A stretch of 64,000 nucleotides of DNA from Anaerolineae bacterium (GCA_034435375.1 DAOTXR010000037.1:76280-140279), one strand, 5' to 3'. Positions 12,412 through 37,905 are shown, counted from the first letter of the stretch. Notes: generated by a model not told the origin, from the letters alone. Numbers and translations are program-made.

Positions 12412-12417
12412 TGGGCT

Positions 12418-14298: not shown

Positions 14299-15228
14299 AT
14301 GCCAGAAACTGGGCATCCGCTGGTCAGCATTATCGTACCTACCTATAACGAGGAAGCTGACATCGCACGCACAATGGACGCACTCGCAGCGCTAACCTAC
14401 CATCCGCTGGAGGTCGTGGTTGTTGATGCGTCCACCGATCGCACGCCGGAGATCGTCCAGAGCTTCTCGGATCGCATCCCCAACCTGAGGCTGATCCGGC
14501 AGAGGCCCAAACCCGGCGTGTCGGTGGCACGCAACGATGGGCTGCGAGAGGCGAAGGGCGAGATCGTCGTCATCCTCAATGCAGACGTGTTCCCCGACAC
14601 GGATTTTGTCAATCGGATCATGGCCCACTATGAGCAGGGAGCTGACTACGTGCTGGTCGACTCCCAGGTGACAAATGTGGAGCACCTGTTTCCACGCTAC
14701 ATTCAGGCGCAGCACCGCTACGAACAGCTACACAACCCAACTGTGGCCGACTGGACTGAGGGCTATTCCTGCCGACGGGAGGCCGCACTCTCCGTAGGGG
14801 GGTTCCCAGAGGAGTTTGGGCGTAACACTGCGGGTGAGGACGGCATCTTCGCTGAGCGGATGCGCAGCCGCTACCGACGGGCAGTAGATTTTTCGATCGT
14901 TGTGCCACATGTCGCTCCAGCCAGCTTCCGAGAGTATTGGCGCCAAAGGTTGGGGCGCGGGCGCGGCGGAGCCTATCGCCTGTATGCCTACGAAAGACGG
15001 CCAATGCGTTGGGGAGCAATTGCGCAGTCAGTTCTGGGAACATGGTTCCTGGCAGCAATTCTGGTTCCGGCGCTGATCCATGCCTGGCGCATTTCACCGT
15101 ACTCGCCGCGAGGCAGGCGCGACTGGCTGCCTCTGGTGTGGGCACGTCTGATCGAGATGGTCGCTGGCGCTGCGGGATATGGGGATGGCTGCCTGGAGAT
15201 CGCACGGCTGGGCCTGAACAAACCATGA
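14299..15228 (+). CDS. Glycosyltransferase family 2 with C-terminal TM helices
   Basis: The GT-A motifs VSIIVPTYNEE..VVVVDASTD..ILNADV are present. The start codon abuts the upstream stop. Confidence 0.88.
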   Translation: MPETGHPLVSIIVPTYNEEADIARTMDALAALTYHPLEVVVVDASTDRTPEIVQSFSDRIPNLRLIRQRPKPGVSVARNDGLREAKGEIVVILNADVFPDTDFVNRIMAHYEQGADYVLVDSQVTNVEHLFPRYIQAQHRYEQLHNPTVADWTEGYSCRREAALSVGGFPEEFGRNTAGEDGIFAERMRSRYRRAVDFSIVVPHVAPASFREYWRQRLGRGRGGAYRLYAYERRPMRWGAIAQSVLGTWFLAAILVPALIHAWRISPYSPRGRRDWLPLVWARLIEMVAGAAGYGDGCLEIARLGLNKP

Positions 15229-16448: not shown

Positions 16449-16622
16449 GATCTCTACTAACACCGATGGCAACACGCAAGCAGGTAGGCTAGAAGCTGCA
16501 GATGGATCAAGCGTCGATGATGCCTGAGCCGCGAACCGGGGCAGGTGCAACCGAGCAGTACGTGGTAAACTTGAGAGCAAAACGTCAGGGATTTGGTACA
16601 ACTGGGAAACAGCGATTCAGCG

Positions 16623-18902: not shown

Positions 18903-18967
18903 GTAGTGTTAGGGCAGCTCGGTGGCGCCACTTTTGAACACCGGGGATTCGGACAACACAACAGGAC

Positions 18968-21133: not shown

Positions 21134-22347
21134 TGACATCTCCAGCCGTCCACCGCCCGGCGCCAGTGACTGGCCAGGATTTTGTGATCCTCTCGACGCA
21201 GGATTGGGACTGCCTGCCAACCCGCAAGCAGCGCTTTGCTCGGTGGTGGGCGCAGGCTGGCAACCGTGTGCTGTATGTCGAGCAGCAGATGCACCTGGCC
21301 GGCTGGTTGGCCGAGATTGGCAAGCACTTCAGCCGGGCCTGGCGCTGGCTGGAAGGCCCACGCCAAGTGGAACCTAACCTGTGGGTTTTCACGTTGCCGG
21401 TGGTGTTGCCTTTCTTCCAGATGTCAGGGCTGGTAAACCGACTCAACAACGCCGTTTTGCTGCCGATATTAAGAGCACAGACCCGCAGGCTGGGATTTTG
21501 CAGTCCAGTGTTGTGGACTTACACCCCGCACTCAGCAGATTTTGTGGGGAGGCTGGGTGAAAAGGCTGATGTCTATGAATGTGTGGATGATTTCACCGCT
21601 GCCCAGGGGTTGGTCAACGCGCGCGTGATCGCGCGACTGGAGCGGCAGCTCATCGAAGCAGTGGACCTGCTGATCACTACTCACCCAGCGCTGCACGAGA
21701 CCCGTTCAGCATGGGCTCGACGGGCATTGATGGTGCCCAATGGGGCCGATGCGGACCATTTTGCACGTGCCGCCGACCCCGATCTTCCGGCGGCAGGGGC
21801 TGTGGCCAGTCTTAAGCATCCCATTATCGGATACCTGGGGGCCATCAACTACTGGATCGACACAGCCCTGCTGGCATATATGGCTCGAAAGCATCCCGAC
21901 TGGACAATCGTGCTGGTGGGGCCGCAGGTGCTGCTGGCTGACATGGAACCGCTTAAAGGTTTGCCAAACGTGGTGCTGACTGGGCGTGTGCCCTATGAAG
22001 AAGTGCCATCCTACGTAAAAGCCTTCGATGTGTGCGTCAATCCCTATGTGTTGGATGCGGTCGCCGAGCATTGCAGTCCGCTCAAGCTCTACGAGTATCT
22101 AGCGACTGGCAAGCCAACGGTCTCGGTGGATATGCCTGAGGCACACCGGTTCGAAGGGCTGATCGATATTGCACGCGATGCCGACGAATTTGTACAACTG
22201 GTCGAGATGGCAGTGGAGGCGCTGACGAATGGCAGCGCTGACAACCGCGCAGCGCAGCGCATGGCCGAGGCGCAGCATCACACCTGGCGCAGCCGCTTTC
22301 ACGAGGTCTCGATGGCGCTTGCAGAAGTGTTAGGAACGAAGGCATGA
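21130..22347 (+). CDS. Glycosyltransferase, GT-B fold (GT1/GT4-like)
   Basis: Length is 405 aa. The C-terminal region has FDVCVNPY..SPLKLYEYLATGKPTVS, typical of GT-B nucleotide-sugar binding. ATGA overlap with the upstream gene. Confidence 0.8.
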   Translation: MMTSPAVHRPAPVTGQDFVILSTQDWDCLPTRKQRFARWWAQAGNRVLYVEQQMHLAGWLAEIGKHFSRAWRWLEGPRQVEPNLWVFTLPVVLPFFQMSGLVNRLNNAVLLPILRAQTRRLGFCSPVLWTYTPHSADFVGRLGEKADVYECVDDFTAAQGLVNARVIARLERQLIEAVDLLITTHPALHETRSAWARRALMVPNGADADHFARAADPDLPAAGAVASLKHPIIGYLGAINYWIDTALLAYMARKHPDWTIVLVGPQVLLADMEPLKGLPNVVLTGRVPYEEVPSYVKAFDVCVNPYVLDAVAEHCSPLKLYEYLATGKPTVSVDMPEAHRFEGLIDIARDADEFVQLVEMAVEALTNGSADNRAAQRMAEAQHHTWRSRFHEVSMALAEVLGTKA

Positions 22348-23147
22348 CCGCATCCCGGCGAGCAGTTGCCGTATTTGATGATGAGAACTCCACCGAGCGC
22401 CCTGAGCCACGCCTACTTGTGATCATTCTGGCCTACAATGAGGAGGACAGCCTGGGTAAGGTGCTGCGCAGCGTGCGCAACGCGGTGCCCTTGGCCGACA
22501 TTGTGGTGATCGATGACGGATCAACGGACGCTACGGCGCAGGTTGCCGAGGGATACGGGGCAGCGGTGCTGCGTCTGCCATACAATCTGGGGATTGGCGC
22601 TGCCGAGCAGACCGGGTTCATGTATGCCCGCGATGCCCGTTATGATGTGGTCGTGCGGGTCGACGGCGATGGACAACATGATCCAGATGAAATCCGGGAT
22701 TTGTTGAATGCACTGGAACAGTCTGATGCCGATGTTGTAGTTGGGTCGCGCTATCTGGAAGACCGGGGGTACATCACCCCCTGGCAGCGACGCATAGGGA
22801 TCGTCATCCTGGCATCGATTATCTCGGCCATTATCAGGCAGCGCATCACCGATCCTACCTCGGGTTTCCGTGCGCTGAACCGGCGGGCCATCGACTTCTG
22901 CGCAACCGATTATCCTTTTGATTATCCAGAGCCAGAGTCGCTTGTGACCTTCCGGCGGGCCGGTCTGCGTATCCACGAGATCCCTGTCACTATGAACCCC
23001 CGATACGGCGGCCAGTCTTCGATTACCCCAGTGCGCTCGGCTTACTACATGGTCAAGGTGATCATGGCAGTCTTGATCGGTCTGCTACGTACAAGGCCGC
23101 GCGTAGTAGAGGAGGTGCAAGTTGTCCATCAACATCTCGCGAACTGA
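22344..23147 (+). CDS. GT2 polyprenyl-phosphate glycosyltransferase-like (GtrB/DPM1/ArnC-type)
   Basis: Motifs LVIILAYNEE, VVIDDGSTD, VDGDGQHDP, GSRY and TSGFRA are characteristic of polyprenol-phosphate sugar synthases. ATGA overlap with the upstream gene. Confidence 0.8.
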   Translation: MTASRRAVAVFDDENSTERPEPRLLVIILAYNEEDSLGKVLRSVRNAVPLADIVVIDDGSTDATAQVAEGYGAAVLRLPYNLGIGAAEQTGFMYARDARYDVVVRVDGDGQHDPDEIRDLLNALEQSDADVVVGSRYLEDRGYITPWQRRIGIVILASIISAIIRQRITDPTSGFRALNRRAIDFCATDYPFDYPEPESLVTFRRAGLRIHEIPVTMNPRYGGQSSITPVRSAYYMVKVIMAVLIGLLRTRPRVVEEVQVVHQHLAN

Positions 23148-23520
23148 GCTGCTGATGATCGCTGGCCCGGTGCTGATGTTTGTGATTGTGCTGGAGCTAG
23201 TGCGACGTCGTCATCTGCGTGAGGACTACTCTTTGCTGTGGCTGGGAACATTTGTAGTGCTGGTGATGCTCTCGCTTCTGCGTACTTCGCTGCTCAACGT
23301 TGTAGCCCGTCTGATGGGCATCCAGTACCCACCCACTGCCCTGTTTGTGATCGGCTTTGGGCTGCTGTTGTTGGTGATGCTCCAGTTTTCGATGGTCATC
23401 ACACGGCTGTCACGCCAGAGCCAGCAGGCAGCTCAGCACATTGCGTTGCTGAGCATGCGTGTGCGCGATCTGGAGCGCCAGCTTGAATCACGCAGCAGCA
23501 CAATGACATCGGAGCTGTAG
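23122..23520 (+). CDS. DUF2304-type small membrane protein (usual partner of the preceding GT2)
   Basis: Length is 132 aa. It shows hydrophobic helices, an RRRHLREDYSLLWL motif and a C-terminal coiled-coil-like tail. TTG 23122 is preceded by GAGGAGG at 6-nt spacing and overlaps the GT2 3' end. Confidence 0.75.
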   Translation: MSINISRTELLMIAGPVLMFVIVLELVRRRHLREDYSLLWLGTFVVLVMLSLLRTSLLNVVARLMGIQYPPTALFVIGFGLLLLVMLQFSMVITRLSRQSQQAAQHIALLSMRVRDLERQLESRSSTMTSEL

Positions 23521-23535
23521 ACCGGGTATGGAATC

Positions 23536-24666
23536 ATGCGTGTCGTCCACGTGAGCAAAGTAACCGGCATTGCCGGCTCAGAGGGACATCTCTTGACGCT
23601 GCTACCGGGACTAGCTGGACGCAAAATCGAGGTCTCCATGATGGTGCTCGAAGACCCCCGTCGCCCAGCGAAGTCGTTCTGTCGTGAGATGGCTGCCCGT
23701 GGGGTGCCAGTCGAGTGTGTCCCGATCGAGGGTCACCTGGATGTCAGGCTGTTCAGGCGGTTGGCGGATCGATGGCGGGCGCTCACACCTGACCTGGTGC
23801 ACACGCACCTGCTGCACGCCGACCTCTACGGTCTACCCTCGGCACGCTGGGCTGGTGTGCGATGCGCTGTCTCATCACGCCACAACGACAACCCATTCCG
23901 ACGCAACCCGGTCATCCGCCTGGTCAATCAGTGGGCCATGCGCTACGCTGACCGCGTGATCGCAATCTCTCACGCGCTGGCTGCTTTTGTGAGCGAAGTG
24001 GAGCGCCTTGATCGCGAGCAGGTCGTGACGATCCATTACGGATTCGCTCCACCAGAGTATCCATCCGATGCACGCGAACAGGCGCGTGCTGCTCTAGGTT
24101 ACCGGCCCGACGAACCAGTGATAGGGCTGTTTGGACGGCTGATCCGTCAGAAGGGCGTTGACGTGCTGCTGGAAGCCTTTGCGCATGTTCTAGAACGTGT
24201 CACGGCAGCACGGTTGCTGATTGTAGGCGACGGCGTGCTGCGCACCAGCTTGGAGGCCCAAGCGAGGTCGCTAGGGCTGGCTCAATCTGTCACTTTTGCT
24301 GGATGGATAGAGCAGGCATACCGACTGATGCCTGCTTGCGATATGATAGTCATGCCTTCACGCTGGGAGGGGTTCGGGCTGGTGGCGTTGGAAGCTATGG
24401 GATGCGCTCGCCCAGTCATTGCTAGCCGAGTGAGTGCTCTGCCCGAGATCATCCTTAATGGCGAGACCGGGCTACTCGTCCCGCCGGAAGACTCGAAGAG
24501 CCTGGCCCAAGCCATTTTGAGCCTGCTAAGCGATCCGGACCGCGCCGCAGCGCTGGGACGAGCCGGTCATGAGCGTCTGGTTAGGGAATTCTCGGTTGAA
24601 AAGATGGTGCAGGCCACAGTTGACCTCTACACCCAGGTCCTGCACTCGCCACAGGAGGCAGGCTGA
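23536..24666 (+). CDS. Glycosyltransferase, GT-B fold (GT4)
   Basis: It begins MRVVHVSKVTGIAGSEGHLL. The C-terminal region has SRWEGFGLVALEAMGCARPVIASRVSALPEII..GETG. Confidence 0.88.
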   Translation: MRVVHVSKVTGIAGSEGHLLTLLPGLAGRKIEVSMMVLEDPRRPAKSFCREMAARGVPVECVPIEGHLDVRLFRRLADRWRALTPDLVHTHLLHADLYGLPSARWAGVRCAVSSRHNDNPFRRNPVIRLVNQWAMRYADRVIAISHALAAFVSEVERLDREQVVTIHYGFAPPEYPSDAREQARAALGYRPDEPVIGLFGRLIRQKGVDVLLEAFAHVLERVTAARLLIVGDGVLRTSLEAQARSLGLAQSVTFAGWIEQAYRLMPACDMIVMPSRWEGFGLVALEAMGCARPVIASRVSALPEIILNGETGLLVPPEDSKSLAQAILSLLSDPDRAAALGRAGHERLVREFSVEKMVQATVDLYTQVLHSPQEAG

Positions 24667-24668
24667 GA

Positions 24669-26591
24669 ATGTCGGGCATCTGTGGGCTGCTGGGGCTGAG
24701 AGGACAGCCACCCGATGATACCGTCTTAGCTGCAATGGCAGAAGCCATGCATTACGGGTCGGGTGGTGCACGAACAGCCATCAACGGCCCCTGCGGACTG
24801 GGCTTTGCCTGGCAGGGCCCCCCTGACCTCGGCAGCGCTGTCCAACCCCTACGCGCCTCGCACGCCATGCTCCGTTTGCCTGACGCCGTACACACCGAAG
24901 TGTGGGGAGTCCACAGCGGGCGCATCTACAATTACCTTGAGATTCGAAAGGCGCTGGAGGCCACCGGGCACCGCTTTGCCACTGATACCGACACTGAGAC
25001 CTTGCTGCGTTCATATCTCCAGTTCGGTCCTACCAACTTCATCAAAGCCTTTCGCGGGATGTTTTCGCTGGCCATCTGGGATCTGCAACATCAGCGGCTC
25101 TTACTGCTACGTGATCGTCTGGGGTTGAGACCGCTTTACTATGCGCTGTCTGAGGATTGGCTCGTGTTCGGGTCGGAGATCAGAGCGCTGCTGGCCTGTC
25201 CAGCGGTGCCCAGGCGACTGAATGAAGCCTTCGTCCCGCACTATCTCGCCTATGGTTACCCGCCGTCACCGGAGACTCTCTTCGAGGGCATCCGGGCTGT
25301 GCCGCCGGGTTATATGCTCACCGTCGAATTGGGCGGGACCCGCCCAACCTTCCAGCTCGATGCTTATTGGTATCCGCCGTATCCATTCAGCGGACCTGAT
25401 CCGCGTGGTGAGGACAATATCTGCAATGACCTCCTGGCTCACCTGCGTTGGGCTGTCCGTTTGCGCATGGACAAAGACAAACCAATGGGCGCATTTCTGT
25501 CCGGCGGACTTGACTCAGCAGCAGTGGTGGCGTTGATGGCTCAGGAGAGTAGTCGGACGATCCAGACGTTTTCCTTTGGGTTCGAAGGTCGTTACTCGTT
25601 TGAAGACACACGCTATGCACGGCAGATCGCCGCACGCTTTGTGACCGATCACCACGAGTTGGTGATCGAACCGGAACTGGAGACTTTGCTGAGTGAGCTG
25701 ATCCTGGCCTATGACCAGCCGTTTGGCAACGCGGCGGCCATCCCCGTCTACTTGATCAGCCGGGAGGCCCGTCAGCACGTTCCTGTGGTGCTGACCGGCG
25801 ACGGCGGCGACGAGCTGTTCGCAGGATATCCCCACTTCCGCACCGCGCGGCTGGCGCGCAGCTACAACCAGCTTCCGGACGTGGCGCAGCGTGCCGTTGA
25901 AGGACTGCTCGATCGGCTGCCCGAGGCGGTGGCCTTTGGAGGGTTTATGCAGCAGGCCAATCACATCGTGCGGGCAGCCCACCTGCCGCTAGCCGAGCGC
26001 TACTTGAGCTGGGTGCGCTGCGTGCCGGATGTGTGGCTGACAGCCCTGATGGGTGGACAGCGTGAGCAGGCCGTGCAAGAACATTACCGGTCGCTGTTTA
26101 CAGTGCCCCAGGGCGGTGAGGAGCCTGATGTCATTGCCCAATTGCTAGACGTAAACCTGCGTACCTACCTGCCCGGCGACCTGCTGACCCGGCTGGATCG
26201 CTGCGGCGCGGCTGCCGCGCTTGAGGTTCGGCTCCCATTTCTGGATCACCAGTTCCTGCATTTCGTGGCGACTATCCCGTCGAGCCTCAAGCTGCGGAGG
26301 GGCACACCTAAGTATGTCCTCAGGCAGGCCTTGCGAGGCGTTTTGCCCGATGCAGTGATCGACCGCAAGCAGCGCAGCCCGGAGGTTCCAGTGGACGAGT
26401 GGTTCCGGGGCCAGCTCATGGGCTACGCACGGTCGGTTCTGCTGGGCAAACAGGCCGCACAGCGCGGTTTATTCGATATGGAAGCAGTACGCGCCATGCT
26501 TGATGCCCATCTCGCCGAGCAGGCCGACCTGGGTTATGCGCTGTGGGCGTTGCTGACCTTCGAGTTGTGGATGCAACTTTACCTCGATTGA
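24669..26591 (+). CDS. Asparagine synthase-like amidotransferase paralog with a divergent N-terminal glutaminase domain
   Basis: The synthetase PP-loop is intact (FLSGGLDSAA). The N terminus reads MSGICG, so Cys is not at position 2. The canonical HRGPD, RLxIxD and NGE(I/V)YN motifs are replaced by HYGSGG, GFAWQG and SGRIYN. Confidence 0.85.
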   Translation: MSGICGLLGLRGQPPDDTVLAAMAEAMHYGSGGARTAINGPCGLGFAWQGPPDLGSAVQPLRASHAMLRLPDAVHTEVWGVHSGRIYNYLEIRKALEATGHRFATDTDTETLLRSYLQFGPTNFIKAFRGMFSLAIWDLQHQRLLLLRDRLGLRPLYYALSEDWLVFGSEIRALLACPAVPRRLNEAFVPHYLAYGYPPSPETLFEGIRAVPPGYMLTVELGGTRPTFQLDAYWYPPYPFSGPDPRGEDNICNDLLAHLRWAVRLRMDKDKPMGAFLSGGLDSAAVVALMAQESSRTIQTFSFGFEGRYSFEDTRYARQIAARFVTDHHELVIEPELETLLSELILAYDQPFGNAAAIPVYLISREARQHVPVVLTGDGGDELFAGYPHFRTARLARSYNQLPDVAQRAVEGLLDRLPEAVAFGGFMQQANHIVRAAHLPLAERYLSWVRCVPDVWLTALMGGQREQAVQEHYRSLFTVPQGGEEPDVIAQLLDVNLRTYLPGDLLTRLDRCGAAAALEVRLPFLDHQFLHFVATIPSSLKLRRGTPKYVLRQALRGVLPDAVIDRKQRSPEVPVDEWFRGQLMGYARSVLLGKQAAQRGLFDMEAVRAMLDAHLAEQADLGYALWALLTFELWMQLYLD

Positions 26592-28352: not shown

Positions 28353-29294
28353 TCAATCTCCGATTTGCACGTTGCCAAAAACGTTGCTCACCTGGATGGT
28401 GACGCGGTTTTCAGCAGTGTCATAGTGCATGGTCTGCCAAACCCCATCTCCTATTTTCTTGAACCGGTTCGGCAAGTCGATGTTAGAGAGAAACCCATCC
28501 ACACTGACACGCGCTTCAAGCCCCTCCGGCACAGTGAGGCGCACACTGCCCATAGCTGCCTCAACGTTTACCACATAATCCCCTCGGTCGGGAAGCATGG
28601 CAGTGACCCGGCCGACCCCACTTTGAAGGGTCAGCAGCCTGATCTGCAGGCCGGTAAGGTCCAGGGTGAAATCGCCGACACCCGCCTCAACAATCAGGTT
28701 GTCAATCGGCACTGCGTCGGTCAGCCTTAAATTGAGATCACCCACGAGACCAGAACCGAGGTTCGTATTTCTTTCCCCTTGCTGCTCGATGCGTAGGCGG
28801 CCCGTGCTGCCAGTCGTATCGTATATGATCTCGAAGTTCAGGGCCTCATCGGTACGAAACTCGCCTTCGACAACATTGCGGCTGTCAGACAGCGGGCTGA
28901 TGCGAGCTGAGGCCGCCCCTATGGCGACCTCGACGCGCTCAAGCTCAGTCACGTCGCCTAGCTCCTGCTCAATCTGGCGGGTGACGGTGTTGCCGGATGG
29001 CGAAACCAGGGCAGGACCGGAAGATGTCCCTGCCCAGAAGATCATAACCCCCACTATAACAAGGCCCAGAATCGCCACTGCTATGCTCCCAACCATCGAA
29101 CGGCTCAGCAGCAAATCCAGGCCGATCAGGATAATGGCCACTGGCCAGAACCGCCACAGCAACCACCAGTTCAGCTGAATCACTCCCATGTTTTGCAGCA
29201 ACAGCGCAACGCCAATCCCGATCAGAATGATGGCTCCGGCAAGCCCTCGTGGACCCCGCTGGCGCTCCTGAGGATAAATCCGATGTTCTGTCAT
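28353..29294 (-). CDS. LiaF-like / toastrack-domain membrane protein (cell-envelope stress family)
   Basis: The N-terminal LiaI-LiaF-like TM region is GAIILIGIGVALLLQN..WPVAIILIGLDLLL. The C-terminal repetitive beta-rich domain resembles the LiaF/DUF2154 toastrack. Confidence 0.7.
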   Translation of the reverse strand: MTEHRIYPQERQRGPRGLAGAIILIGIGVALLLQNMGVIQLNWWLLWRFWPVAIILIGLDLLLSRSMVGSIAVAILGLVIVGVMIFWAGTSSGPALVSPSGNTVTRQIEQELGDVTELERVEVAIGAASARISPLSDSRNVVEGEFRTDEALNFEIIYDTTGSTGRLRIEQQGERNTNLGSGLVGDLNLRLTDAVPIDNLIVEAGVGDFTLDLTGLQIRLLTLQSGVGRVTAMLPDRGDYVVNVEAAMGSVRLTVPEGLEARVSVDGFLSNIDLPNRFKKIGDGVWQTMHYDTAENRVTIQVSNVFGNVQIGD

Positions 29295-29334
29295 GCCTAC
29301 AGTCTCCTAACGATCAAATCTGAACCAGGACAGG

Positions 29335-29766
29335 CTAGCGGCGTGCAAATAGCACAAGCACACCAATCGCAATCAGGGCTATGGGCCACAGCAAGCCGGG
29401 GTTGATCCCCGGTACGAGATTGTTCAGCAGAAACAATGCTCCCAGCACAATCAGGATCACACCCAGGATCAGTGTGCCCTGCGGCGCATTGCGGAATGAA
29501 GTGCCCAGCCGCTTGGCCTGTTCTCCGATGTCTTGAATGTTCGATCGTACCAGGTCCTCACCGCCCAGTTCGCGGTTTGTCTCGTCAGGTACAATCACCC
29601 AGATGATCAGGTAGATCAACAGACCCAGACCATTGACCAGCGCCAGGATACCAAACGCCAGGCGGAACAACATCGGATCGATGCTGAAGTACTCGCCTAG
29701 CCCGGCACACACACCACCGATCACCCGGTTGGTTCTGCTGCGATATAGTCTTTTCATCTCAGACAT
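29335..29766 (-). CDS. PspC domain-containing membrane protein
   Basis: The PspC motif is LYRSRTNRVIGGVCAGLGEYFSIDPMLFRLAFGILAL..GLLIYLIIWVIVP. Start chosen at ATG 29766 (GAGGTG upstream). Alternatives are 29787 and 29757. Confidence 0.85.
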   Translation of the reverse strand: MSEMKRLYRSRTNRVIGGVCAGLGEYFSIDPMLFRLAFGILALVNGLGLLIYLIIWVIVPDETNRELGGEDLVRSNIQDIGEQAKRLGTSFRNAPQGTLILGVILIVLGALFLLNNLVPGINPGLLWPIALIAIGVLVLFARR

Positions 29767-30034
29767 ACCACACCTCGTAGCTGTCAAACTTCACTCAGCA
29801 GGAGTGAATACTTTCATCATACAGTACGCATCCTGGTAGCAAAGGTTGCGCGGCCTCACACGGGATTATACCTCCCTTGCTCACCAGTACTTCGGCATTC
29901 AGCATCACCCTTATCACCTGCTATACTCACAACACGTTCTCGCTCGACTCTGGACTGTGTGGTCCTGAGGGCCTTTGCTCATGCCTCCCGTTCGCTCGTA
30001 TCCAGCCCTTGATACTCCTTGTGAAAAGCAATAT

Positions 30035-30063
30035 TTGACGAATCGCGCAGGACATGGTATCTT
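30035..30063 (+). promoter_or_regulatory. Candidate promoter for the arg leader/operon
   Basis: TTGACG (30035-30040), a 17-nt spacer, then TATCTT (30058-30063). It is preceded by an unusually AT-rich patch (gtgaaaagcaatattt). Confidence 0.4.
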
Positions 30064-30091
30064 CGCCCGCAAATTTCTACAGGACACCTGA

Positions 30092-30175
30092 ATGTCACAG
30101 ATTGTTGTTGCCGTCCGCCGTAATCGCCCTTCGCCTCGCCAGACTCCCCCGGGGTCCGGCTTGGTGGCGTTGTAG
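30092..30175 (+). promoter_or_regulatory. Candidate leader-peptide ORF (27 codons) with an Arg-codon cluster
   Basis: ATG 30092 has AGGA 7 nt upstream. The translation is MSQIVVAVRRNRPSPRQTPPGSGLVAL*. Arg codons fall at positions 9, 10, 12 and 16. The ORF ends 35 nt before the terminator hairpin. Confidence 0.3.
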
Positions 30176-30210
30176 CGGCAGTCAGCAACACCCAGCGCAC
30201 GCAGCACAAC

Positions 30211-30244
30211 CCGCTCCCGGACCACAGCCGGGAGCGGTTTTTTT
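30211..30244 (+). terminator. Intrinsic terminator immediately upstream of argC (attenuator candidate)
   Basis: A perfect 10-bp GC-rich stem, CCGCTCCCGG / CCGGGAGCGG, with a 7-nt loop, followed by TTTTTTT. No + strand gene lies upstream. The argC RBS (GGGGGA) and ATG 30262 follow within 18 nt. Confidence 0.75.
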
Positions 30245-30261
30245 AGTACAGGGGGAAAGAC

Positions 30262-31272
30262 ATGATGGTTGCCGTAGGCATCTACGGTGCGACAGGCTAT
30301 ACCGGGCTGGAGTTGGTGCGGTTATTGGCGCACCACCCAGAGGTGCACATCGGTTTCGTGACATCGGAAAGCATGGCCAACCAGAGCCTGCGCCGTAGCT
30401 GGCCTCTTGCTCCTGACCTGCAGTTAGTACATGCCGCCGACGCGCCGCTGGACAGCGTACAGAGTGTGTTCCTGTGCTTGCCCCACACTGAGTGTGCGCC
30501 GCTGGCTGCGCAGGCGCTAATGAGGAATGTCCGCGTTGTCGATCTGTCTGCCGATCTGCGCCTGAACGAAGTCGAGGCATACTCGCAGTGGTATAGCGCA
30601 GCCCATCCTGCTCCCCATCTCCTGCCGATACCTTACGGCCTGCCAGAACTGGGCCGTGGCCCGCTGAGCGGGGCAAAGTGCATCGCCAACCCAGGCTGCT
30701 ACGCAACGGCAGCTTTGCTGGGACTAGTGCCGTTGGCGCGATTCGAATTGCTTGTCGATGGCACCCCATTGATCGTCGATGCCAAGTCGGGGGTGTCGGG
30801 TGCGGGGCGGTCACCTAAACCGCACCTCCTGTTCGGCGAGGTCCACGGCAACCTCTCCCCCTATAGTATCGGGCGTACTCACCGCCACATTGCGGAGATC
30901 GAGCAGGTGCTGGCGGCTGAGGGTGTATCTGCAGGGCGGCTGATCTTCTCCCCGCACCTGTTACCCACCGACCGTGGCATTCTGGCCACGATCTATGTCC
31001 AGGTGAGGGACGTCACCCTGGCTCGCGCAGCCTATGAGGAAATGTACGGCGCTGAACCACTGATCGAAGTGCTGCCGGAGGGCGATCTGGCAACCCTGGC
31101 CCATGTGGTGCGGACACCGCGTGCGGCGATCTCGCTAACCCCAGTAGGCAGCAGGACGCTGATCGTCGTGGTGACCATTGACAACCTGCTCAAGGGCGCA
31201 GCCTCACAAGCTGTGCAGAATTTTAACCTGATGTGGGGCTTCGAGGAAACCACCGGACTGCTGTCTTGCTGA
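30262..31272 (+). CDS. argC: N-acetyl-gamma-glutamyl-phosphate reductase
   Basis: It has IYGATGYTGLELVRLL and the active-site motif NPGCYAT. Length is 336 aa. Confidence 0.93.
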   Translation: MMVAVGIYGATGYTGLELVRLLAHHPEVHIGFVTSESMANQSLRRSWPLAPDLQLVHAADAPLDSVQSVFLCLPHTECAPLAAQALMRNVRVVDLSADLRLNEVEAYSQWYSAAHPAPHLLPIPYGLPELGRGPLSGAKCIANPGCYATAALLGLVPLARFELLVDGTPLIVDAKSGVSGAGRSPKPHLLFGEVHGNLSPYSIGRTHRHIAEIEQVLAAEGVSAGRLIFSPHLLPTDRGILATIYVQVRDVTLARAAYEEMYGAEPLIEVLPEGDLATLAHVVRTPRAAISLTPVGSRTLIVVVTIDNLLKGAASQAVQNFNLMWGFEETTGLLSC

Positions 31273-31305
31273 ATAGACCGCGGTTCGGCCTTTGATGGAG
31301 AGGCT

Positions 31306-32055
31306 ATGGACAAGGGTTCACCAATTGTGATCAAAGTGGGCGGCAACCATCTAGAACAGCCCGGTTTCATCCCGGCGCTGGCGCAGGTGGTGGCTGAGCA
31401 TCAGCAGCGGCAGCCCTGCATTCTGATCCACGGCGGCGGGCGGGCGGTAGACGCCCTGATGGCTCGGTTGGGCATCACGCCATCCTACATCGATGGGCAG
31501 CGCGTGACCGACGATGACACGTTGGCGGCTGTGGAGATGATGCTCACGGGTCGCGTGAACAAGGACCTCACTCTGGCGCTGCTGGAGGTGGGTGTTGACG
31601 CGCTGGGGATGAGTGGAGTGGATCGCGGGCTGATCCGCGTCGAACCGTGGTCGGCGGCGATGGGGCGCGTGGGGCGCGTGGTGAACGTGAGGGCTGAGGT
31701 GCTGCGCGAGCTGTGCGCCCAGGGTGTGGTGCCTGTCATCTCACCGATCTCTGCTGGGCCGGAGGGGCGCTATAACGTCAATGCCGACCACATAGCAGGA
31801 GCCATCGCGGGAGCAGTGGATGCCTCACATGCTGCTTTCGTGACCGACACACCCGGTGTGTGGGTAGGCAACACACTGGCAGAGCAGCTTTCGGCAGGCG
31901 AGGTCAGAGAGTTAATTGCCCAGGGAGTCATCCACGGCGGAATGGTTCCCAAGGTCAATGCCGCGCTGGACGCCCTGACAAACGGAGTGCACAGGGTGGT
32001 CATCACCGATTTGGAAGGATTGCGCCGGGGAACTGGCACGACCGTGGTGCAGTGA
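31306..32055 (+). CDS. argB: Acetylglutamate kinase
   Basis: The amino-acid kinase motifs are IKVGG, IHGGG, GQRVT, NVNADH and GGMVPKV. Length is 249 aa. Confidence 0.9.
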   Translation: MDKGSPIVIKVGGNHLEQPGFIPALAQVVAEHQQRQPCILIHGGGRAVDALMARLGITPSYIDGQRVTDDDTLAAVEMMLTGRVNKDLTLALLEVGVDALGMSGVDRGLIRVEPWSAAMGRVGRVVNVRAEVLRELCAQGVVPVISPISAGPEGRYNVNADHIAGAIAGAVDASHAAFVTDTPGVWVGNTLAEQLSAGEVRELIAQGVIHGGMVPKVNAALDALTNGVHRVVITDLEGLRRGTGTTVVQ

Positions 32056-32085
32056 GTGGCAGCTAGCATACTTGAGGAGGCAGTC

Positions 32086-33282
32086 ATGGCTATCGACACG
32101 CAGCACATCATCGCTACGGAGATCGTAGAGAAGGAAGGCCGGTACGTCCTGGGGACCTACAAACGTGCTCCTTTTGTGCTGGTAGAGGCGGCAGGGATGA
32201 CCGTTACCGACAGCACAGGCAAACGCTACCTGGACTTTGGGGCAGGGATCGCAGTGAATGCGCTGGGGCACGCCGACCCTGAGATCGTGGCCGTGGTGCA
32301 ACAACAGATAGCGCAGCTCAACCACGTCTCGAACCTGTATCACACTGCGCCCCATGTCGAGCTGGCTGAGATGCTCTGCAACCTCAGCTTTGCCGATAAG
32401 GTGTTCTTTTGCAACTCGGGCGCCGAAGCCATTGAGGCAGCGATTAAGTTCGCCCGCAAATATGCTCGTGTCACGCACGATCCCGGCAAGACCGGGATCG
32501 TCGCTTTTGGCGGCGCTTTCCATGGGCGGACCATTGGCGCACTATCCATTACACCACGCGAAGCCTACCAGGCCCCTTTCCGACCACTAGTCAATGGCGT
32601 GACGTATGGAAACTTCAACAACATTGAGGCAGCACAGGCGTTCATTGGGCCAAACACGTGCGCGGTGTTTGTCGAGCCGGTGCAGGGCGAGGGCGGCGTG
32701 CATGTCGCTACAGCGCAGTTCCTGGAGGCGCTGCGCGAACTGTGCGACCGTCACGATGCGCTGCTGGTGTTCGATGAGGTGCAGTGCGGGCTTGGGCGGA
32801 CCGGCAGGTTGTGGGCCTACGAGCATTATGGCGTGCAGCCGGACATCATGACAGTGGCTAAGGCGCTGGGCGGCGGTCTGCCGATGGGCGCCACGCTGGT
32901 CAGCGAGCGGGTAGCAGCAGTGATGGAAGCAGGCGATCACGGCAGCACATTTGCTGGCAGCCCTGTGGTGGCGCGTGCGGCACAGGTCGTACTGCGGCGT
33001 GTCAGCGATCCAGCGTTTTTAGAGCATGTCCGTGCGATGGGCGATGTGCTGATCACGCGCCTGCGTGGGTTAAAGTCATCCCACATCAAAGAGGTACGAG
33101 GGTTGGGGCTGATGGCTGGGATTGAGCTGGATGTGGAAGTTGCGCCAATGATCGCCGCAGGGTACGAGCGTGGCGTGATTCTGCTCAATGCCGGACCAAA
33201 TGTGCTGCGCCTGCTGCCGCCACTGATCGTCGAGGAGGAGCACATCGAAGTGCTGATCGGGGTATTGGAGGAAATCCTGTAG
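32086..33282 (+). CDS. argD: Acetylornithine aminotransferase (class III)
   Basis: Motifs are FCNSGAEA, FDEVQCGLGRTG and the PLP-lysine context TVAKALGGG. ATG 32086 has GAGGAGG upstream; the track's GTG 32056 is less likely. Confidence 0.9.
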   Translation: MAIDTQHIIATEIVEKEGRYVLGTYKRAPFVLVEAAGMTVTDSTGKRYLDFGAGIAVNALGHADPEIVAVVQQQIAQLNHVSNLYHTAPHVELAEMLCNLSFADKVFFCNSGAEAIEAAIKFARKYARVTHDPGKTGIVAFGGAFHGRTIGALSITPREAYQAPFRPLVNGVTYGNFNNIEAAQAFIGPNTCAVFVEPVQGEGGVHVATAQFLEALRELCDRHDALLVFDEVQCGLGRTGRLWAYEHYGVQPDIMTVAKALGGGLPMGATLVSERVAAVMEAGDHGSTFAGSPVVARAAQVVLRRVSDPAFLEHVRAMGDVLITRLRGLKSSHIKEVRGLGLMAGIELDVEVAPMIAAGYERGVILLNAGPNVLRLLPPLIVEEEHIEVLIGVLEEIL

Positions 33283-33340
33283 GAACAAGTGTTTTTGCGA
33301 AAAGCCATTGGATTACTTTCCGCTGAAGAAGGGAGGCCGG

Positions 33341-33871
33341 TTGACCGACATAGCTGTCCATACGCCTGCGCCGCACTTCTCACACATCCGCGCGGCGCGG
33401 GTCGAGGAGGTGGAGAACATCCTGGCGCTGTTTGCTGATGAAGTCCGTGCAGGCAAGATGTTGCCGCGCGATGCGGGAGAGGTTCGCGCCCGGATCGCTG
33501 ACTGGTTGGTAGCCGAGTCAGCAGGCCGCCTGGTCGGCTGTGTGTCTCTGGTGTTCTTTGACGAGGACTTGTGTGAGCTGCGCTCGCTGGCAGTCGATGC
33601 CCAATGGAGAGGCAATGGCCTGGGCGGAGCGCTGATCGACGCTGCTGTCAACCTGGCGCGGCAACGTGGGATGCAGCGCGTGCTGACATTGACCCGATCA
33701 GTGAGTCTGTTTGAACAGCATGGCTTCCGACGGGATCTTGTAGCTAACTTTCCAGAGAAGGTGTGGCGCGATTGCATGCCATGCCCTCTGCGTGAGCGGT
33801 GCGACGAAGTAGCGTTGATCTGCTCTTTGGGACTGACTGACGGGCACAGTGGCAACGGAAGGCAACCATGA
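33341..33871 (+). CDS. GNAT-family amino-acid N-acetyltransferase (short N-acetylglutamate-synthase-like)
   Basis: The GNAT motif A is LAVDAQWRGNGLGGALI. The C-terminal tail is KVWRDCMPCPLRERCDE. Position within the arg operon supports the call. The start is uncertain: TTG 33341 with GGGAGG upstream, versus the track's TTG 33308. Confidence 0.75.
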   Translation: MTDIAVHTPAPHFSHIRAARVEEVENILALFADEVRAGKMLPRDAGEVRARIADWLVAESAGRLVGCVSLVFFDEDLCELRSLAVDAQWRGNGLGGALIDAAVNLARQRGMQRVLTLTRSVSLFEQHGFRRDLVANFPEKVWRDCMPCPLRERCDEVALICSLGLTDGHSGNGRQP

Positions 33872-35055
33872 CCCATGTTCAGGTAAAGGGGTATAGCGCA
33901 GCAGGGGTGTCCTGCGGGTTGAAACCCGATGGCAAGAAAGACCTCGCGCTGATCGTAGGGGAAAGACCCTGTACGGTAGCTGGTGTGTTCACGACCAACC
34001 GCGTTAAGGCTGCGCCGGTGCTGTATGACATGCTGACAATCGGCGCTGGAAAGCCAGTACGAGCAGTGGTAGCTAATGCAGGAAACGCCAATGCCTGTAC
34101 GGGTGAGCAAGGTATGTCCAACGTCCGTGCGATGGCCGATCAGACCGCCAGGGTCGTCGGCTGCACACCAGACGAAGTGCTAGTGCTGTCAACAGGTGTG
34201 ATCGGCGTGCAGATGCCGATGGACAAAGTACTGCCCGGCATCCAGGCTGCGGCACAGGCGCTTGCAGCAGAGGGATGGGACGCTGCTGCCCATGCCATCA
34301 TGACAACCGACACGCGGCCTAAGATCGTTAGTCTCACCTCCCACCGAGGGTACACCATCACAGGCATTGCCAAAGGGGCAGGGATGATCGCGCCGAACAT
34401 GGCAACCATGCTAGCCGTGATCGTTACGGATGCACAGGCGACGCGCCGCTGCCTTCACAACGCACTGATGGAGTCCGTCAATGTGAGCTTTAACCGCATC
34501 GTCGTCGATGGCGACATGAGCACCAACGACACGGTACTGCTGCTGGCGAACGGAGCATCGGGGGTGGCGGTGGATGGCAGCGAGGTGGAGTTCGGCTCGC
34601 TGCTGAGGAGCGTGTGTGTGACACTGGCGCAGGCCATCGTCCGTGATGGCGAGGGCGCGACGAAGTTTGTGACGGTCGAGGTGACTGGCGCACCTGACCA
34701 GGCTTCGGCGCTGGCGGTGGCTCGTAGCATTGCCACCTCGCCGCTCTGCAAGACGGCCTTTTACGGCAACGATCCAAACTGGGGGCGAATCGTGTGCGCT
34801 GCGGGATATTCTGGCGCAGCTGTGGAGCCAGACCGGCTGACGTTGGAGCTAGCCGATGCCAACGGAGGCGCAAAGGTCCGACTTGTGGTGGGCGGACAGC
34901 CTGCGGATTACGACGAGAATGCAGCTATCGCCTTGATGCAAGGGCCGGAATGGAGCATCCACCTTGACCTTGGGCTGGGGGGTGCGTCGAGCACAGTCTG
35001 GACATGTGATCTCAGCCCTGAGTATGTGTCTATCAACGGACACTATCGCACCTGA
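33868..35055 (+). CDS. argJ: Bifunctional ornithine acetyltransferase / N-acetylglutamate synthase
   Basis: The ArgJ family pattern includes the autoprocessing site context PNMATMLAVIVTDA. ATGA overlap with the upstream gene. Confidence 0.92.
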   Translation: MTHVQVKGYSAAGVSCGLKPDGKKDLALIVGERPCTVAGVFTTNRVKAAPVLYDMLTIGAGKPVRAVVANAGNANACTGEQGMSNVRAMADQTARVVGCTPDEVLVLSTGVIGVQMPMDKVLPGIQAAAQALAAEGWDAAAHAIMTTDTRPKIVSLTSHRGYTITGIAKGAGMIAPNMATMLAVIVTDAQATRRCLHNALMESVNVSFNRIVVDGDMSTNDTVLLLANGASGVAVDGSEVEFGSLLRSVCVTLAQAIVRDGEGATKFVTVEVTGAPDQASALAVARSIATSPLCKTAFYGNDPNWGRIVCAAGYSGAAVEPDRLTLELADANGGAKVRLVVGGQPADYDENAAIALMQGPEWSIHLDLGLGGASSTVWTCDLSPEYVSINGHYRT

Positions 35056-35179
35056 TTGTCGATTCAGGGGTGCGGGAGTGCCGGGCCTCTAGGCGTTGGC
35101 AGCCCTACAGAGGGTGCCAAAGGATGCAGAGGCTGTCTCGTCTCATAGAATGTCTGCCTTTGGGAAGGGAGAAATTCTC

Positions 35180-36445
35180 GTGGTTGAGCAGAAGCAGGTA
35201 AAAAAGGTGGTCCTGGCCTATTCGGGCGGCCTGGATACCTCGATCATCGTCCCCTGGCTCAAAGAGAACTATGGCTGTGAGGTGGTATGCTTCACTGCTG
35301 ATCTGGGTCAGGGTGAGGAGCTTGATGGGCTGGAGGAGAAAGCCATCCGGAGTGGAGCCAGCAAGGTCTTTATCGAGGACCTACGTGAAGAGTTTCTGAC
35401 CGGATACATATTCCCGACGATGCAGGCTGGCGCAATCTACGAACATAAGTATCTGCTGGGTACGTCGTTCGCACGCCCTTTGATTGCCAAACGGCAGGTC
35501 GAGATCGCCGAGCAGGAAGGCGCCGATGCCGTTGCCCACGGCTGCACCGGCAAGGGCAACGACCAGGTGCGGTTTGAGGTGACGGTGATGGCCCTCAACC
35601 CGACGTTGCGTATTATTGCGCCGTGGCGTGAATGGGACATCCGCAGCCGTGAGGATGCACTGGCCTACGCCCGCGCACACAATGTGCCCGTCCGCCAGAC
35701 GGAGAAGTCGATCTACAGCCGCGACGCTAATCTATGGCATATGAGCCACGAGGGCGGCCCGCTGGAGGATCCCTGGCTGGAGCCTGAGGAAGCCATGTAC
35801 ACCCTGACGGTCAGCCCTGAGACTGCCCCCGATGTGCCGGAGGTGATCGATCTGGAGTTCAAGAATGGCACACCGGTCGGTCTGAACGGTGAGAAGCTGG
35901 GGCCTGTCGAGCTGGTGCTGCGGCTTAATGCGCTGGGCGGCAAGCATGCCATCGGGCGGGTGGACTTGGTCGAGAACCGGCTGGTGGGGATGAAATCACA
36001 CGGTGTGTATGAGACACCCGGCGGCACGATCCTATACACAGCCCATCGTGAACTGGAGAGCATCTGCTTGGACAAAGACACCCTGCACTACAAGCAGATG
36101 CTCAGCATCCGTTACGCCGAGCTGGTGTACGACGGCAAGTGGTTCTCGGCACTGCGTGAGGCACTGGACGGTTTCGTGATGGTCACGCAGCGGCATGTAA
36201 CGGGGCATGTGCGGCTGAAGCTGTACAAGGGCAATGTCATTGTCCTGGGACGCAAGTCACCGTATAGCCTATACCGCGAGGACTATGCCTCCTTCGGGCA
36301 GATGGATGTGTACGATCAGCGCGATGCTGAGGGATTCATCAACCTATGGGGGTTGCCGCTGAAGGTTGATGCCATGCTGAGCATCATGGGCACCGGGAAG
36401 AGCCGGTTCCGCGCCCCTGACTATTCGATCTTCAAGCGAGATTGA
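35180..36445 (+). CDS. argG: Argininosuccinate synthase
   Basis: It has the [11 protein letters not shown]-loop and the family pattern throughout. Start chosen at GTG 35180 (GGAAGGGAG 8 nt upstream). Alternatives are ATG 35150 and the track's 35096. Confidence 0.92.
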
Positions 36446-36534
36446 TGTCAGGTTAGGATAAGACTCAGGCGGCCTCTACCTACTCCCACGCATGATGCTG
36501 GTCTATGAACTCACGAGTTGAGAGGGGGCAAACG

Positions 36535-37905
36535 ATGCGTCTGTGGGGCGATCCCTTCAGTGACGAGCCAGACGGCCTGATGAACCGTTTCAACGACAGC
36601 TTCACTTTTGATCGGCGGCTGTACGCTGCCGATATCCGGGGCAGTATCGCCTACGCTGGCGCACTACGACGGGTAGGGCTGATCGATGAGAGAGAGCACG
36701 CCGCGATGGTTTCGGGGCTGGAGCAGGTGCGGCGTGAGTTCGAAGAAGGATATTTTGAGGCGCTGCCCACTGACGAGGATATTCACACGGCCATCGAACG
36801 CCGCCTGACGGACCTGATCGGTGTTACAGCGGGCAAGCTGCACACCGGGCGCAGCCGTAACGACCAAGTGGCTCTTGACCTGCGGCTGTGGCTGTTGGAA
36901 GCCATCGAGAATGTGCAACGTAGCCTCAGGGAAACCCAGGCTGCTCTCGTGACGAAGGCTGAGGCCCACTTGGGCCTGATCATGCCAGGATATACTCATC
37001 TACGGCCTGCCCAGCCGGTGCTGTTTAGCCATTGGTTGTTGAGCTTTTTCTGGATGTTGGAGCGCGATCAAGATCGACTAATCCACTGTGCACGCCGCAC
37101 CGCCGTGTGCCCGCTCGGCGCAGGAGCACTGGCTGGAAATCCCTTCCCCATCGACCGCGCGGCGCTGGCAGCGGACCTGGGGATGGATGAGATTGCGCCC
37201 AACAGCCTGGACGCAGTGAGCGACCGCGACTTCGCGGCTGAGTTTTTGTTTGTGGCGGCTCTCATAGGCGTGCATCTTAGCCGATTGGCAGAGGATCTGA
37301 TCGTGCTCTCCAGCCCTGGCTACCACTTCGTCATCATCGATGAAGCCTACACGACCGGATCGAGCCTGATGCCGCAGAAACGCAACCCCGATGCGCTGGA
37401 GTTGACGCGCGGCAAGTGCGGTCGGCTGATCGGCGATCTCATGGCGCTGCTCGCTGTACTCAAGGGGTTGCCCTTGACTTACAATAAGGATTTGCAAGAG
37501 GACAAAGAGCCGGTCTTTGACGCGGTGGACACACTCAACCTGACACTGCCGGTGGTCGCAGGCGTGATCCGAACGTTAGAACCTGACCCTCAGGCAATGC
37601 GTGCCGCGTTGTCAAGCGAAATGTTGGCCACCGACTTGGCTGACTACCTTGTCGAACGTGGGGTGCCGTTTCGAGAGGCACATCATGTGGTGAGAAGGTT
37701 GGTGCAGCGAGCCATATCACGGGGTAGAACGCTGGCTGACCTGTCTGTGGAGGACTTGCAGGCTGAGTCGGCAGCATTTGGGGAAGACGCACGGGCTGTG
37801 CTCGACTTTGAGCGGTCGGTGGCGCGTCGAACAGCGACCGGCGGGACCGCGCCGGAGGCCGTGCGGAAGCAGATCGTACAGGCGCGGGAGCGCCTGGGGG
37901 GTTGA
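36535..37905 (+). CDS. argH: Argininosuccinate lyase
   Basis: It begins MRLWGDPF and carries GRSRNDQV and the fumarate-lyase signature GSSLMPQKRNP. ATG 36535 has GAGGGGG upstream. Confidence 0.93.
   Translation: MRLWGDPFSDEPDGLMNRFNDSFTFDRRLYAADIRGSIAYAGALRRVGLIDEREHAAMVSGLEQVRREFEEGYFEALPTDEDIHTAIERRLTDLIGVTAGKLHTGRSRNDQVALDLRLWLLEAIENVQRSLRETQAALVTKAEAHLGLIMPGYTHLRPAQPVLFSHWLLSFFWMLERDQDRLIHCARRTAVCPLGAGALAGNPFPIDRAALAADLGMDEIAPNSLDAVSDRDFAAEFLFVAALIGVHLSRLAEDLIVLSSPGYHFVIIDEAYTTGSSLMPQKRNPDALELTRGKCGRLIGDLMALLAVLKGLPLTYNKDLQEDKEPVFDAVDTLNLTLPVVAGVIRTLEPDPQAMRAALSSEMLATDLADYLVERGVPFREAHHVVRRLVQRAISRGRTLADLSVEDLQAESAAFGEDARAVLDFERSVARRTATGGTAPEAVRKQIVQARERLGG

Follow-up and report, generated by a model that had tools for sequence, protein, structure and literature searches.

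A candidate arginine-codon attenuator directly upstream of argC in Anaerolineae (Chloroflexota)

Introduction

Arginine biosynthesis is a standard example of control by a DNA-binding repressor instead of attenuation, and binding of ArgR or AhrC at ARG boxes is the standard control of bacterial arg genes. Attenuation by a translated leader is known for other amino-acid operons, such as those headed by trpL, hisL, leuL, thrL, pheL and ilvL of Escherichia coli (represented in Rfam by the Trp, His, Leu, Thr and Phe leaders), in which a short open reading frame (ORF) carries codons for the operon's own amino acid. Here we describe a leader with the same kind of short ORF, carrying arginine codons, that lies directly upstream of argC in a 64,000-nucleotide stretch of DNA from an Anaerolineae bacterium (GCA_034435375.1, DAOTXR010000037.1:76280-140279; this whole stretch is referred to below as the window, and positions are counted from its first letter). 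The organism belongs to the phylum Chloroflexota, in which gene regulation is, to our knowledge, almost unstudied. On evidence that is computational throughout, we propose with a probability of about 0.85 that this leader is a classical ribosome-mediated transcription attenuator, which would sense charged tRNA-Arg and control the operon argC-argB-argD-GNAT-argJ-argG-argH.

The nearest bacterial case so far described is orf34 in the leader of Salmonella speF, where pausing of the ribosome at consecutive Arg codons under low arginine redirects the folding of mRNA (Ben-Zvi et al. 2019, PMC6386406). A survey of Actinobacteria reports that elsewhere arginine genes are controlled at the RNA level by T-boxes, and the attenuators on its list are all for amino acids other than arginine (PMC1262725); a genome-wide survey of attenuators makes no mention of arginine (PMC2965389). 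Our search of the literature, from which most subscription journals were missing and which is thus not proof of novelty, returned no earlier description of an Arg-codon attenuator of arginine biosynthesis. As far as could be checked, such a control is indeed unusual for arg genes, as had been remarked in a first-pass annotation of the window.

Results

Conservation of the leader and its linkage to argC

The leader ORF (30092-30175, + strand) consists of 27 codons followed by TAG, with the predicted product MSQIVVAVRRNRPSPRQTPPGSGLVAL, and starts 28 nt past the -10 element of a putative promoter. Its Arg codons form a cluster at 30116-30139, composed of CGC (30116-30118), CGT (30119-30121), CGC (30125-30127) and CGC (30137-30139), which are codons 9, 10, 12 and 16 of the ORF; both the ORF and the clustering of four Arg codons had been noticed in the first-pass annotation and are present as described there. 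At the Arg frequency of the operon (6.7%), four Arg within eight codons are expected with P of about 0.001, which is modest if taken alone, and the promoter match taken alone is at chance level (see below), so that the case for the leader rests on the comparison with its relatives.

For this comparison genomes were scanned with ArgC, of which the closest homologue is 74% identical; the scan placed the organism in Chloroflexota, class Anaerolineae, with resemblance to Aggregatilineaceae/Anaerolineaceae. The best 120 ArgC protein matches were all 64-100% identical, and the leader family was sampled among the ArgC relatives of 64-74% identity. The same leader design was found directly 5' of argC in all the Anaerolineae genome loci with upstream DNA (21/21). 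In addition, five ArgC loci that were fetched independently and had not been used for building the covariance model, R1, all carry the leader, with R1 scores of 66-87 bits. The leader is always in the same orientation as argC and 12-79 nt from the argC start, and the upstream neighbour genes differ among the leader-bearing loci. A scan of metagenomes with an 18-nt piece of the conserved motif, GTCCGGCTTAGTGGYGTT, returned 23 stretches, 9 of them true leaders and the other 14 chance matches in unrelated sequence; all the true leaders with visible downstream sequence are followed by argC.

R1 detects a single copy at each locus, and in 412 kb of sequence searched there was no copy outside the argC leaders, nor one elsewhere in the window. 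Distant ArgC loci, from Lactobacillaceae and other groups, gave no match with R1, and a BLAST search of the leader against plasmids gave none either. One further match to the most conserved leader segment (region 2, see below), with two mismatches (GTCCGGTTTGGTCG), lies at 60975-60988 (+ strand) of the window inside an ORF of the YhhN family. As a second leader copy it was rejected, since 29 of 100 shuffles yield two or more matches, which is the level of chance, and since it is undetected by the covariance model.

Conservation of the ORF and of its arginine codons

Homologous ORFs are present in all 31 of the leaders collected, each with an in-frame start and without internal stop in the ORF frame; in most of the leaders both other frames contain stops. 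The length of the ORF is 22-28 codons, most often 23, and the peptide consensus of the family is M-x6-[P/V]-R-R-P-R-x-R-R-[P/Q]-x4-G-P-A-stop, the residues at the N-terminus not being conserved. The Arg cluster falls within codons 6-18 of the relatives' leaders, which hold 3-8 Arg codons in total and 2-7 CGC/CGT codons in the cluster. Among the 127 cluster Arg codons of the 26 leaders tabulated, 64 are CGC, 62 are CGT and a single one (in leader L014) is CGA, against a share of only 51-66% for CGC/CGT, and only 12-20% for CGT, among the Arg codons of ordinary genes in these genomes. At equivalent cluster positions CGC and CGT are swapped synonymously. The mini-ORF and its Arg codons are thus kept in relatives, which was one of the checks proposed together with the first-pass annotation.

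The near-exclusive use of CGC/CGT may be read in two ways, either as selection for a single starvation-sensitive isoacceptor or as a consequence of pairing of pyrimidines with G in the hairpin P1 described below. CGC and CGT are both decoded by the tRNA-Arg with anticodon ICG; under the theory of selective charging (reportedly Elf et al. 2003), this isoacceptor should be the most sensitive to starvation. The leader may accordingly read one tRNA-Arg isoacceptor specifically.

The ORF usually stops at the TAG of the conserved motif GGTCCGGCTTAGTGG, and the relatives share a near-invariant segment, GGTCCGGCTTAGTGGCG, in which the stop codon usually lies. In the window and in the relatives L006 and L058 the apical loop of P1 is shorter, and for this reason the ORF frame is shifted, the motif TAG is out of frame and the ORF ends 11 nt further 3'; this TAG is mutated to TGG in the window and in L006 and is retained out of frame in L058. 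In another relative, L012, TAG is lost from the frame and the stop follows five codons later. The C-terminus of the peptide is replaced in all four of these leaders, by SGLVAL or SGLAAL in the first three and by GPDLWRWA in L012, with retention of the RNA motif. A peptide C-terminus that can be replaced, together with an RNA motif and a nearby stop that are kept, argues against a sensor of peptide sequence and for a sensor that reads codons.

When the window leader (30149-30175) is set beside that of its closest relative, L055 (2880-2895, ending in RQTPPGGPA-stop), it is seen to have two fewer G in CCCCCGGGG(GG)TCC, by which its frame is shifted, the old TAG being now TGG. L006 and L058 have this frame shift in other lineages, which suggests that a stop 11 nt downstream is tolerated either recurrently or by inheritance.

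The terminator

The intrinsic terminator (segments 3:4; 30211-30244, + strand) is located between the leader ORF and argC and ends 17 nt before the argC ATG. Its stem of 10 bp, 9 of them G-C, is formed between 30211-30220 and 30228-30237, with a loop of 7 nt and seven T (T7, 30238-30244), and the predicted minimum free energy (MFE) is -21.2 kcal/mol. Over 31 sequences pairing in the terminator amounts to 97.9%, and 8 of its 11 pairs have changed in a compensatory way, values attained by none of the shuffles. This 10-bp stem with T7, and the lack of a + strand gene upstream of it, had been the starting point of the first-pass annotation, and both were confirmed, because the upstream gene, which encodes a PspC domain according to Pfam (29335-29787), is on the opposite strand and divergent from the leader, and so there is no upstream gene in need of a + strand terminator.

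In a scan of both strands of the 64 kb for perfect stems, this was the only hairpin followed by a T-run, even with loose settings (6 bp or more in the stem, 4 or more of them G-C, and T4 or longer), and none of 200 dinucleotide shuffles of the window yielded a strict hairpin (9 bp or more, with T6 or longer). About 50 genes of the window end without a perfect-stem hairpin plus T-run, and canonical intrinsic terminators seem to be rare at the gene ends of this organism. That the sole canonical terminator lies at the arg leader suggests that such terminators are perhaps kept where a switch is needed.

Region 2 and its two alternative partners

The most conserved segment of the family, herewith called region 2, is GGTCCGGCTTGGTGGCGTTGT in the window (30153-30173, + strand) and GGTCCGGCTTAGTGGCGTT in the family consensus, and was identified from invariant or near-invariant columns in two alignments (A1 and A2). 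It has two alternative partners, i.e. the strand carrying the Arg codons, with which it forms the hairpin P1, or the 5' arm of the terminator, with which it forms the antiterminator.

P1 (segments 1:2, the anti-antiterminator; 30103-30190, + strand) has a predicted energy of -40.6 kcal/mol in MFE folds. Its 5' strand consists of codons 4-19 of the leader, including all four Arg codons, and its 3' strand of region 2 plus spacer. An equivalent long hairpin appears in the MFE structure of all 22 loci folded, with an apical loop that is variable in sequence and length. A P1 of fixed register across the loci was not supported, average pair probabilities in gapless coordinates giving almost nothing, because the register and the bulges differ between loci and column-based counting fails for this reason; measures taken sequence by sequence were therefore used instead of column counts. 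By per-sequence folding, region 2 has a fraction of about 0.6-0.7 of its bases paired upstream, and the basal stem of P1 fits the partner of its own locus better than those of other loci (permutation p = 5e-5). From the MAFFT alignment RNAalifold retrieved nothing but the terminator.

The partner of region 2 in the antiterminator is segment 3, ACAAC-CCGCT-C-CCGGACC (30206-30223, + strand), which serves at the same time as the terminator 5' arm plus the first bases of its loop. The antiterminator of the window (spanning 30153-30223) has 17 bp, with a predicted energy of -33.3 kcal/mol versus -21.2 for the terminator, and consists of three helices, GGTCCGG (30153-30159) with CCGGACC (30217-30223), GGTGG (30163-30167) with CCGCT (30211-30215), and GTTGT (30169-30173) with ACAAC (30206-30210). 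The two conserved helices (GGTCCGG and GGTGG; 12 pairs, 31 sequences) are 90.3% paired, as compared with 34-51% when the partner is shifted. Double-sided changes were found at three pairs, for instance in L003 (GGACCCGG with CGGGTCC) and in L015. The evidence for the antiterminator is mainly this conserved complementarity. A structure exclusive of the terminator had been anticipated in the first-pass annotation, and one was found that is conserved and shows some compensatory changes, but its pairing is a different one: for the interaction proposed there, between CCGGGG (30149-30154) and CTCCCGG, 64% of the cells over 31 sequences are paired, as against up to 70% for shifted controls, and it is therefore not supported.

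Predicted switch at the decision point

In order to simulate the choice between the two partners, the nascent RNA of 22 loci was folded up to the terminator loop (the decision point), and the number of base pairs expected between region 2 and the terminator arm was taken as the measure. Without ribosome 0.7 pairs are expected. For a ribosome held at the second cluster Arg codon this value becomes 7.9, and for one held at the last Arg codon 9.5, with at least 6 pairs in 19 of the 22 loci; with the ribosome at the stop codon it is 0.0 (Wilcoxon p < 1e-6). Masking of the 5' strand as by a stalled ribosome leads to predicted pairing of region 2 with the terminator 5' arm in nearly all the loci. 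The spacing agrees with such a model: from the last CGC/CGT to GGTCCGG there are 17 nt in the median and 14 nt in the window, which places region 2 outside the footprint of the stalled ribosome, and the stop codon of the standard form begins 3 nt past GGTCCGG, within the footprint of a terminating ribosome.

Based on these predictions the leader would work as follows. Transcription would start near 30070, and a ribosome would translate the 27-codon ORF while RNA polymerase heads for the terminator. With ample arginine, the ribosome would pass the four CGC/CGT codons and reach the stop codon, where it would cover region 2 (GGTCCGG...GGTGGCG) or let it re-pair behind, and the terminator (30211-30244) could form and stop transcription before argC. 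When Arg-tRNA is scarce, the ribosome would stall at 30116-30139 and hold the 5' strand of P1, leaving region 2 free; region 2 would then pair with ACAAC-CCGCT-CCGGACC as soon as this is made, the terminator 5' arm would be occupied, and polymerase could enter argC. If there is no translation at all, P1 would sequester region 2 and the terminator would be expected to form.

Promoter and Shine-Dalgarno sequence

A consensus scan located a candidate promoter of the sigma-70 type with extended -10 at 30035-30063 (+ strand), composed of the -35 element TTGACG (30035-30040), N17 and TGgTATCTT (30055-30063), in agreement with the TTGACG-N17-TATCTT of the first-pass annotation, and transcription is predicted to start near 30070, which would give argC a leader of about 190 nt. 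By itself the match is at chance level, one such site being expected per 2.5 kb. At least 14 of 22 related loci have the arrangement TTGnnn-N17-TGnTAnnnT at a distance of 22-51 nt 5' of the leader ORF. The putative Shine-Dalgarno (SD) sequence AGGA (30081-30084, in the element 30080-30090, + strand), likewise seen before, is 7 nt before the leader ATG and sits in the MFE fold of the window within a weak 4-bp hairpin, CAGG-ACA-CCTG.

An A/T-rich motif of about 20 nt, TTTGTRCnTTTnnACCAAAA, which is a partial palindrome (TTTG...CAAA), adjoins the -35 element of the leader promoter in roughly one half of the relatives, at about -60 to -38. The carriers are L001, L002, L004, L005, L008, L010-L013, L021 and L023, and these loci also have a -10 of the type TGTGnTAnnnT; a weak form of the motif is present in the window at 30018-30034. 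The motif may serve as an UP element or be bound as an operator by a transcription factor, and in the latter case it would add a second layer of arg control.

Alternative explanations

Since region 2 is far more conserved than the remaining leader, the leader may be considered as an RNA switch independent of translation, in which region 2 is bound by a small ligand, be it arginine or an intermediate of the pathway, or by an RNA-binding protein, this binding decides between terminator and antiterminator, and the ORF is incidental; the Arg/Pro-rich frame might then derive in part from a C-rich strand pairing with a G-rich strand, and the weak SD in about half of the leaders also speaks for such a switch. 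Region 2 is, however, under three overlapping constraints, namely P1 pairing, antiterminator pairing and the codons for G-P-A-stop, by which its conservation is explained without any ligand. Furthermore, an in-frame start, a fixed ORF length, a stop-free frame and replacement stops are not expected for a non-coding RNA, the variable apical loop of P1 makes no conserved pocket evident, and there is no match to an Rfam riboswitch or T-box at E up to 10. We regard this explanation as very improbable.

The second alternative accepts the translation of the ORF but supposes that the nascent peptide senses free arginine, in the manner of the fungal arginine attenuator peptide, TnaC or SpeFL, and arrests the ribosome at the stop codon over region 2, by which termination would be fixed at high arginine. 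The conserved length (23 residues), the basic core R-R-P-R-x-R-R and the C-terminal G-P-A-stop of most members would fit with such a peptide, and an arrest at the stop codon would lie exactly over region 2. Against this stand the unconserved N-terminal residues and the leaders of the window, L006, L058 and L012, in which the C-terminus is replaced and the RNA motif is kept, indicating that the nucleotides are conserved and not the peptide tail. Sensors of tRNA charging are, in addition, typically recognized by a run of codons for the amino acid that their pathway makes, and we know of no ligand-sensing arrest peptide with such a run. A peptide sensor is therefore, in our judgement, even less probable than a translation-independent switch.

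The least probable explanation of the three is that of an independent small gene, for a trans-acting small RNA or an arginine-rich micropeptide, lying by chance upstream of argC and ended by the terminator, for although promoter, ORF and terminator make up a complete transcription unit of about 175 nt, the leader is always immediately 5' of argC in the same orientation whatever the upstream neighbour, the 17-nt gap of the window shows no evident promoter for argC alone, and a free-standing gene would have no use for the conserved complementarity of region 2 to the terminator arm. RNAs and peptides derived from attenuators can act in trans, as reported for rnTrpL and peTrpL, and the leader may have a trans role in addition to attenuation. 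Each of the three explanations accounts for only a subset of the observations and fails on the in-frame design, the replaceable C-terminus or the strict linkage to argC.

Standing of the attenuator model

The assignment as an attenuator is carried by the parts of the leader and their conservation, the covariation of the terminator, the conserved antiterminator complementarity and the switch predicted at the decision point. Those defining features of a leader-peptide attenuator that are accessible to sequence analysis and folding, i.e. ORF, Arg codons, terminator, antiterminator and 1:2 hairpin, all appear to be present. The suggestion in the first-pass annotation, that arginine is sensed here through a leader peptide on which the ribosome stalls, is thus supported, as far as sequences and models reach, by the conservation of the ORF and its Arg codons, by the mutually exclusive structures and by the negative Rfam search.

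Several observations weigh against the attenuator model. Judged by eye, only about half of the relatives have an SD-like purine run, which in the others is weak or absent. P1 is only modestly better folded than shuffled sequences (mean z of -1.4). Since region 2 hardly varies, the antiterminator shows little covariation (5 cells at 3 pairs). The need of a C-rich strand for pairing with the G-rich region 2 could also account for the restriction to CGC/CGT and for some of the Arg/Pro-rich pattern, C and U both being able to pair with G. Translation of the ORF, stalling under arginine limitation and termination in vivo are what we infer from the design of the leader. Finally, when the full leader is folded at equilibrium, the terminator is favoured in 16-18 of 22 loci despite a stalled ribosome, and the switch is visible only in the co-transcriptional calculation at the decision point and not in equilibrium folding with masked ribosome. 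As the terminator wins at equilibrium even then, antitermination would have to be kinetic. The trp attenuator behaves likewise, its terminator being the more stable structure at equilibrium and the choice being kinetic.

The arginine operon and neighbouring genes

The operon downstream of the leader comprises seven genes, argC-argB-argD-GNAT-argJ-argG-argH (30262-37905, + strand; Pfam), from argC (30262-31272, + strand; ATG at 30262) to argH (36505-37905, + strand), both identified by Pfam match. The relatives of the window show the same gene order after the leader. In the arg operon of the window argF is absent, and the locus L056 is without argD. The gene for a GNAT acetyltransferase (33308-33871, + strand) is directly 5' of argJ and overlaps its start; a GNAT gene of about 170-190 residues with such an overlap before argJ is found also in L054, L055, L056 and L058, and its product may be a short N-acetylglutamate synthase. 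The Pfam matches within the 64-kb window include no ArgR gene.

Divergent from the leader, at 28353-29787 (- strand), two genes encode membrane proteins of the envelope-stress type, one with PspC plus a LiaF-like transmembrane region and the other LiaF-like with the LiaF C-terminal domain (Pfam). Since the upstream neighbour of the leader varies among loci, a functional link between this pair and the arg leader is probably absent. Elsewhere in the window, an 892-residue protein (47298-49976, - strand) has a weak match to the helix-turn-helix of sigma-70 region 4, a NB-ARC/STAND NTPase domain and TPR repeats, a domain architecture resembling that of the MalT/AfsR regulators. A long cluster at 9143-26591 (+ strand) includes several glycosyltransferases of the GT4 and GT2 families, two asparagine synthase paralogues, a heparinase II/III-like protein, a fused ADH/GFO oxidoreductase and a 674-residue ORF (10387-12411) without Pfam match, and is probably a locus for polysaccharide biosynthesis.

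Discussion

The whole window gave no Rfam match at gathering score, and at E up to 10 the region 29700-30400 gave only two chance matches, snoRNA-like and on the other strand, with no T-box and no leader family among them. The scan for T-boxes and other leaders, proposed with the first-pass annotation as a check, thus brought up no relevant family. The leader belongs to no described family; in our reading the mechanism is a known one and the family is new. We slightly favour the wider view that it is the first described family of Arg-codon attenuators, that it extends across much of Anaerolineae and that it provides there a main arginine-responsive control of the arg operon, in the role that ArgR has in model bacteria.

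The trp-style mechanism would then have been recruited also for arginine, in the phylum Chloroflexota. The model R1 with alignment A3 is ready for annotation of such leaders in metagenome-assembled genomes, and the leader gives a prediction of which Arg codons are starvation-sensitive in these organisms. It also represents a compact arginine-responsive part for synthetic biology.

Compared with the known systems, the leader shares with ArgR/AhrC the aim of shutting off the arginine pathway in times of ample arginine; ArgR binds DNA and responds to free arginine at the promoter, whereas the leader would act on RNA and sense charged tRNA-Arg. T-boxes bind uncharged tRNA directly, are at least about 200 nt long with a specifier loop and a conserved T-box sequence, and need no translation. 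Arg-specific T-boxes, of which the survey of Actinobacteria (PMC1262725) makes mention for other species, are likewise terminator/antiterminator switches at the RNA level that report the charging of tRNA-Arg. Unlike these, the arg leader is about 175 nt long, contains a conserved ORF and gives no match to the T-box model. With the fungal arginine attenuator peptide, encoded by the upstream ORF (uORF) of Neurospora crassa arg-2 and yeast CPA1, it has in common a uORF of about 24 codons and a ribosome-based response of a pathway gene to arginine. The fungal system is, however, a eukaryotic translational control, in which the nascent peptide together with free arginine stalls the ribosome at the uORF stop, and it has, unlike the arg leader, neither a run of Arg codons nor a terminator.

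The Salmonella orf34 has in common with the arg leader the upstream ORF and the alteration of mRNA folding by pausing at Arg codons, but its targets are ornithine decarboxylase and the synthesis of putrescine instead of that of arginine, and its outputs are Rho-dependent termination, unmasking of the ribosome-binding site and sensitivity to RNase G, not a switch of an intrinsic terminator (PMC6386406). It has two Arg codons in a 34-codon ORF, and its sequence is unrelated to that of the arg leader. From the classical attenuators the arg leader differs in sensing, as proposed, arginine, in its occurrence in Chloroflexota and in having no similarity in sequence or covariance model to the Rfam leader families; its Arg codons, almost all CGC/CGT, are interspersed (R-R-x-R-x-R-R), unlike the tandem codons of the classical leaders. 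It follows the same four-segment logic, with 1:2 pairing, a 2:3 antiterminator and a 3:4 intrinsic terminator, and the same placement of the stop codon, by which a terminating ribosome covers segment 2.

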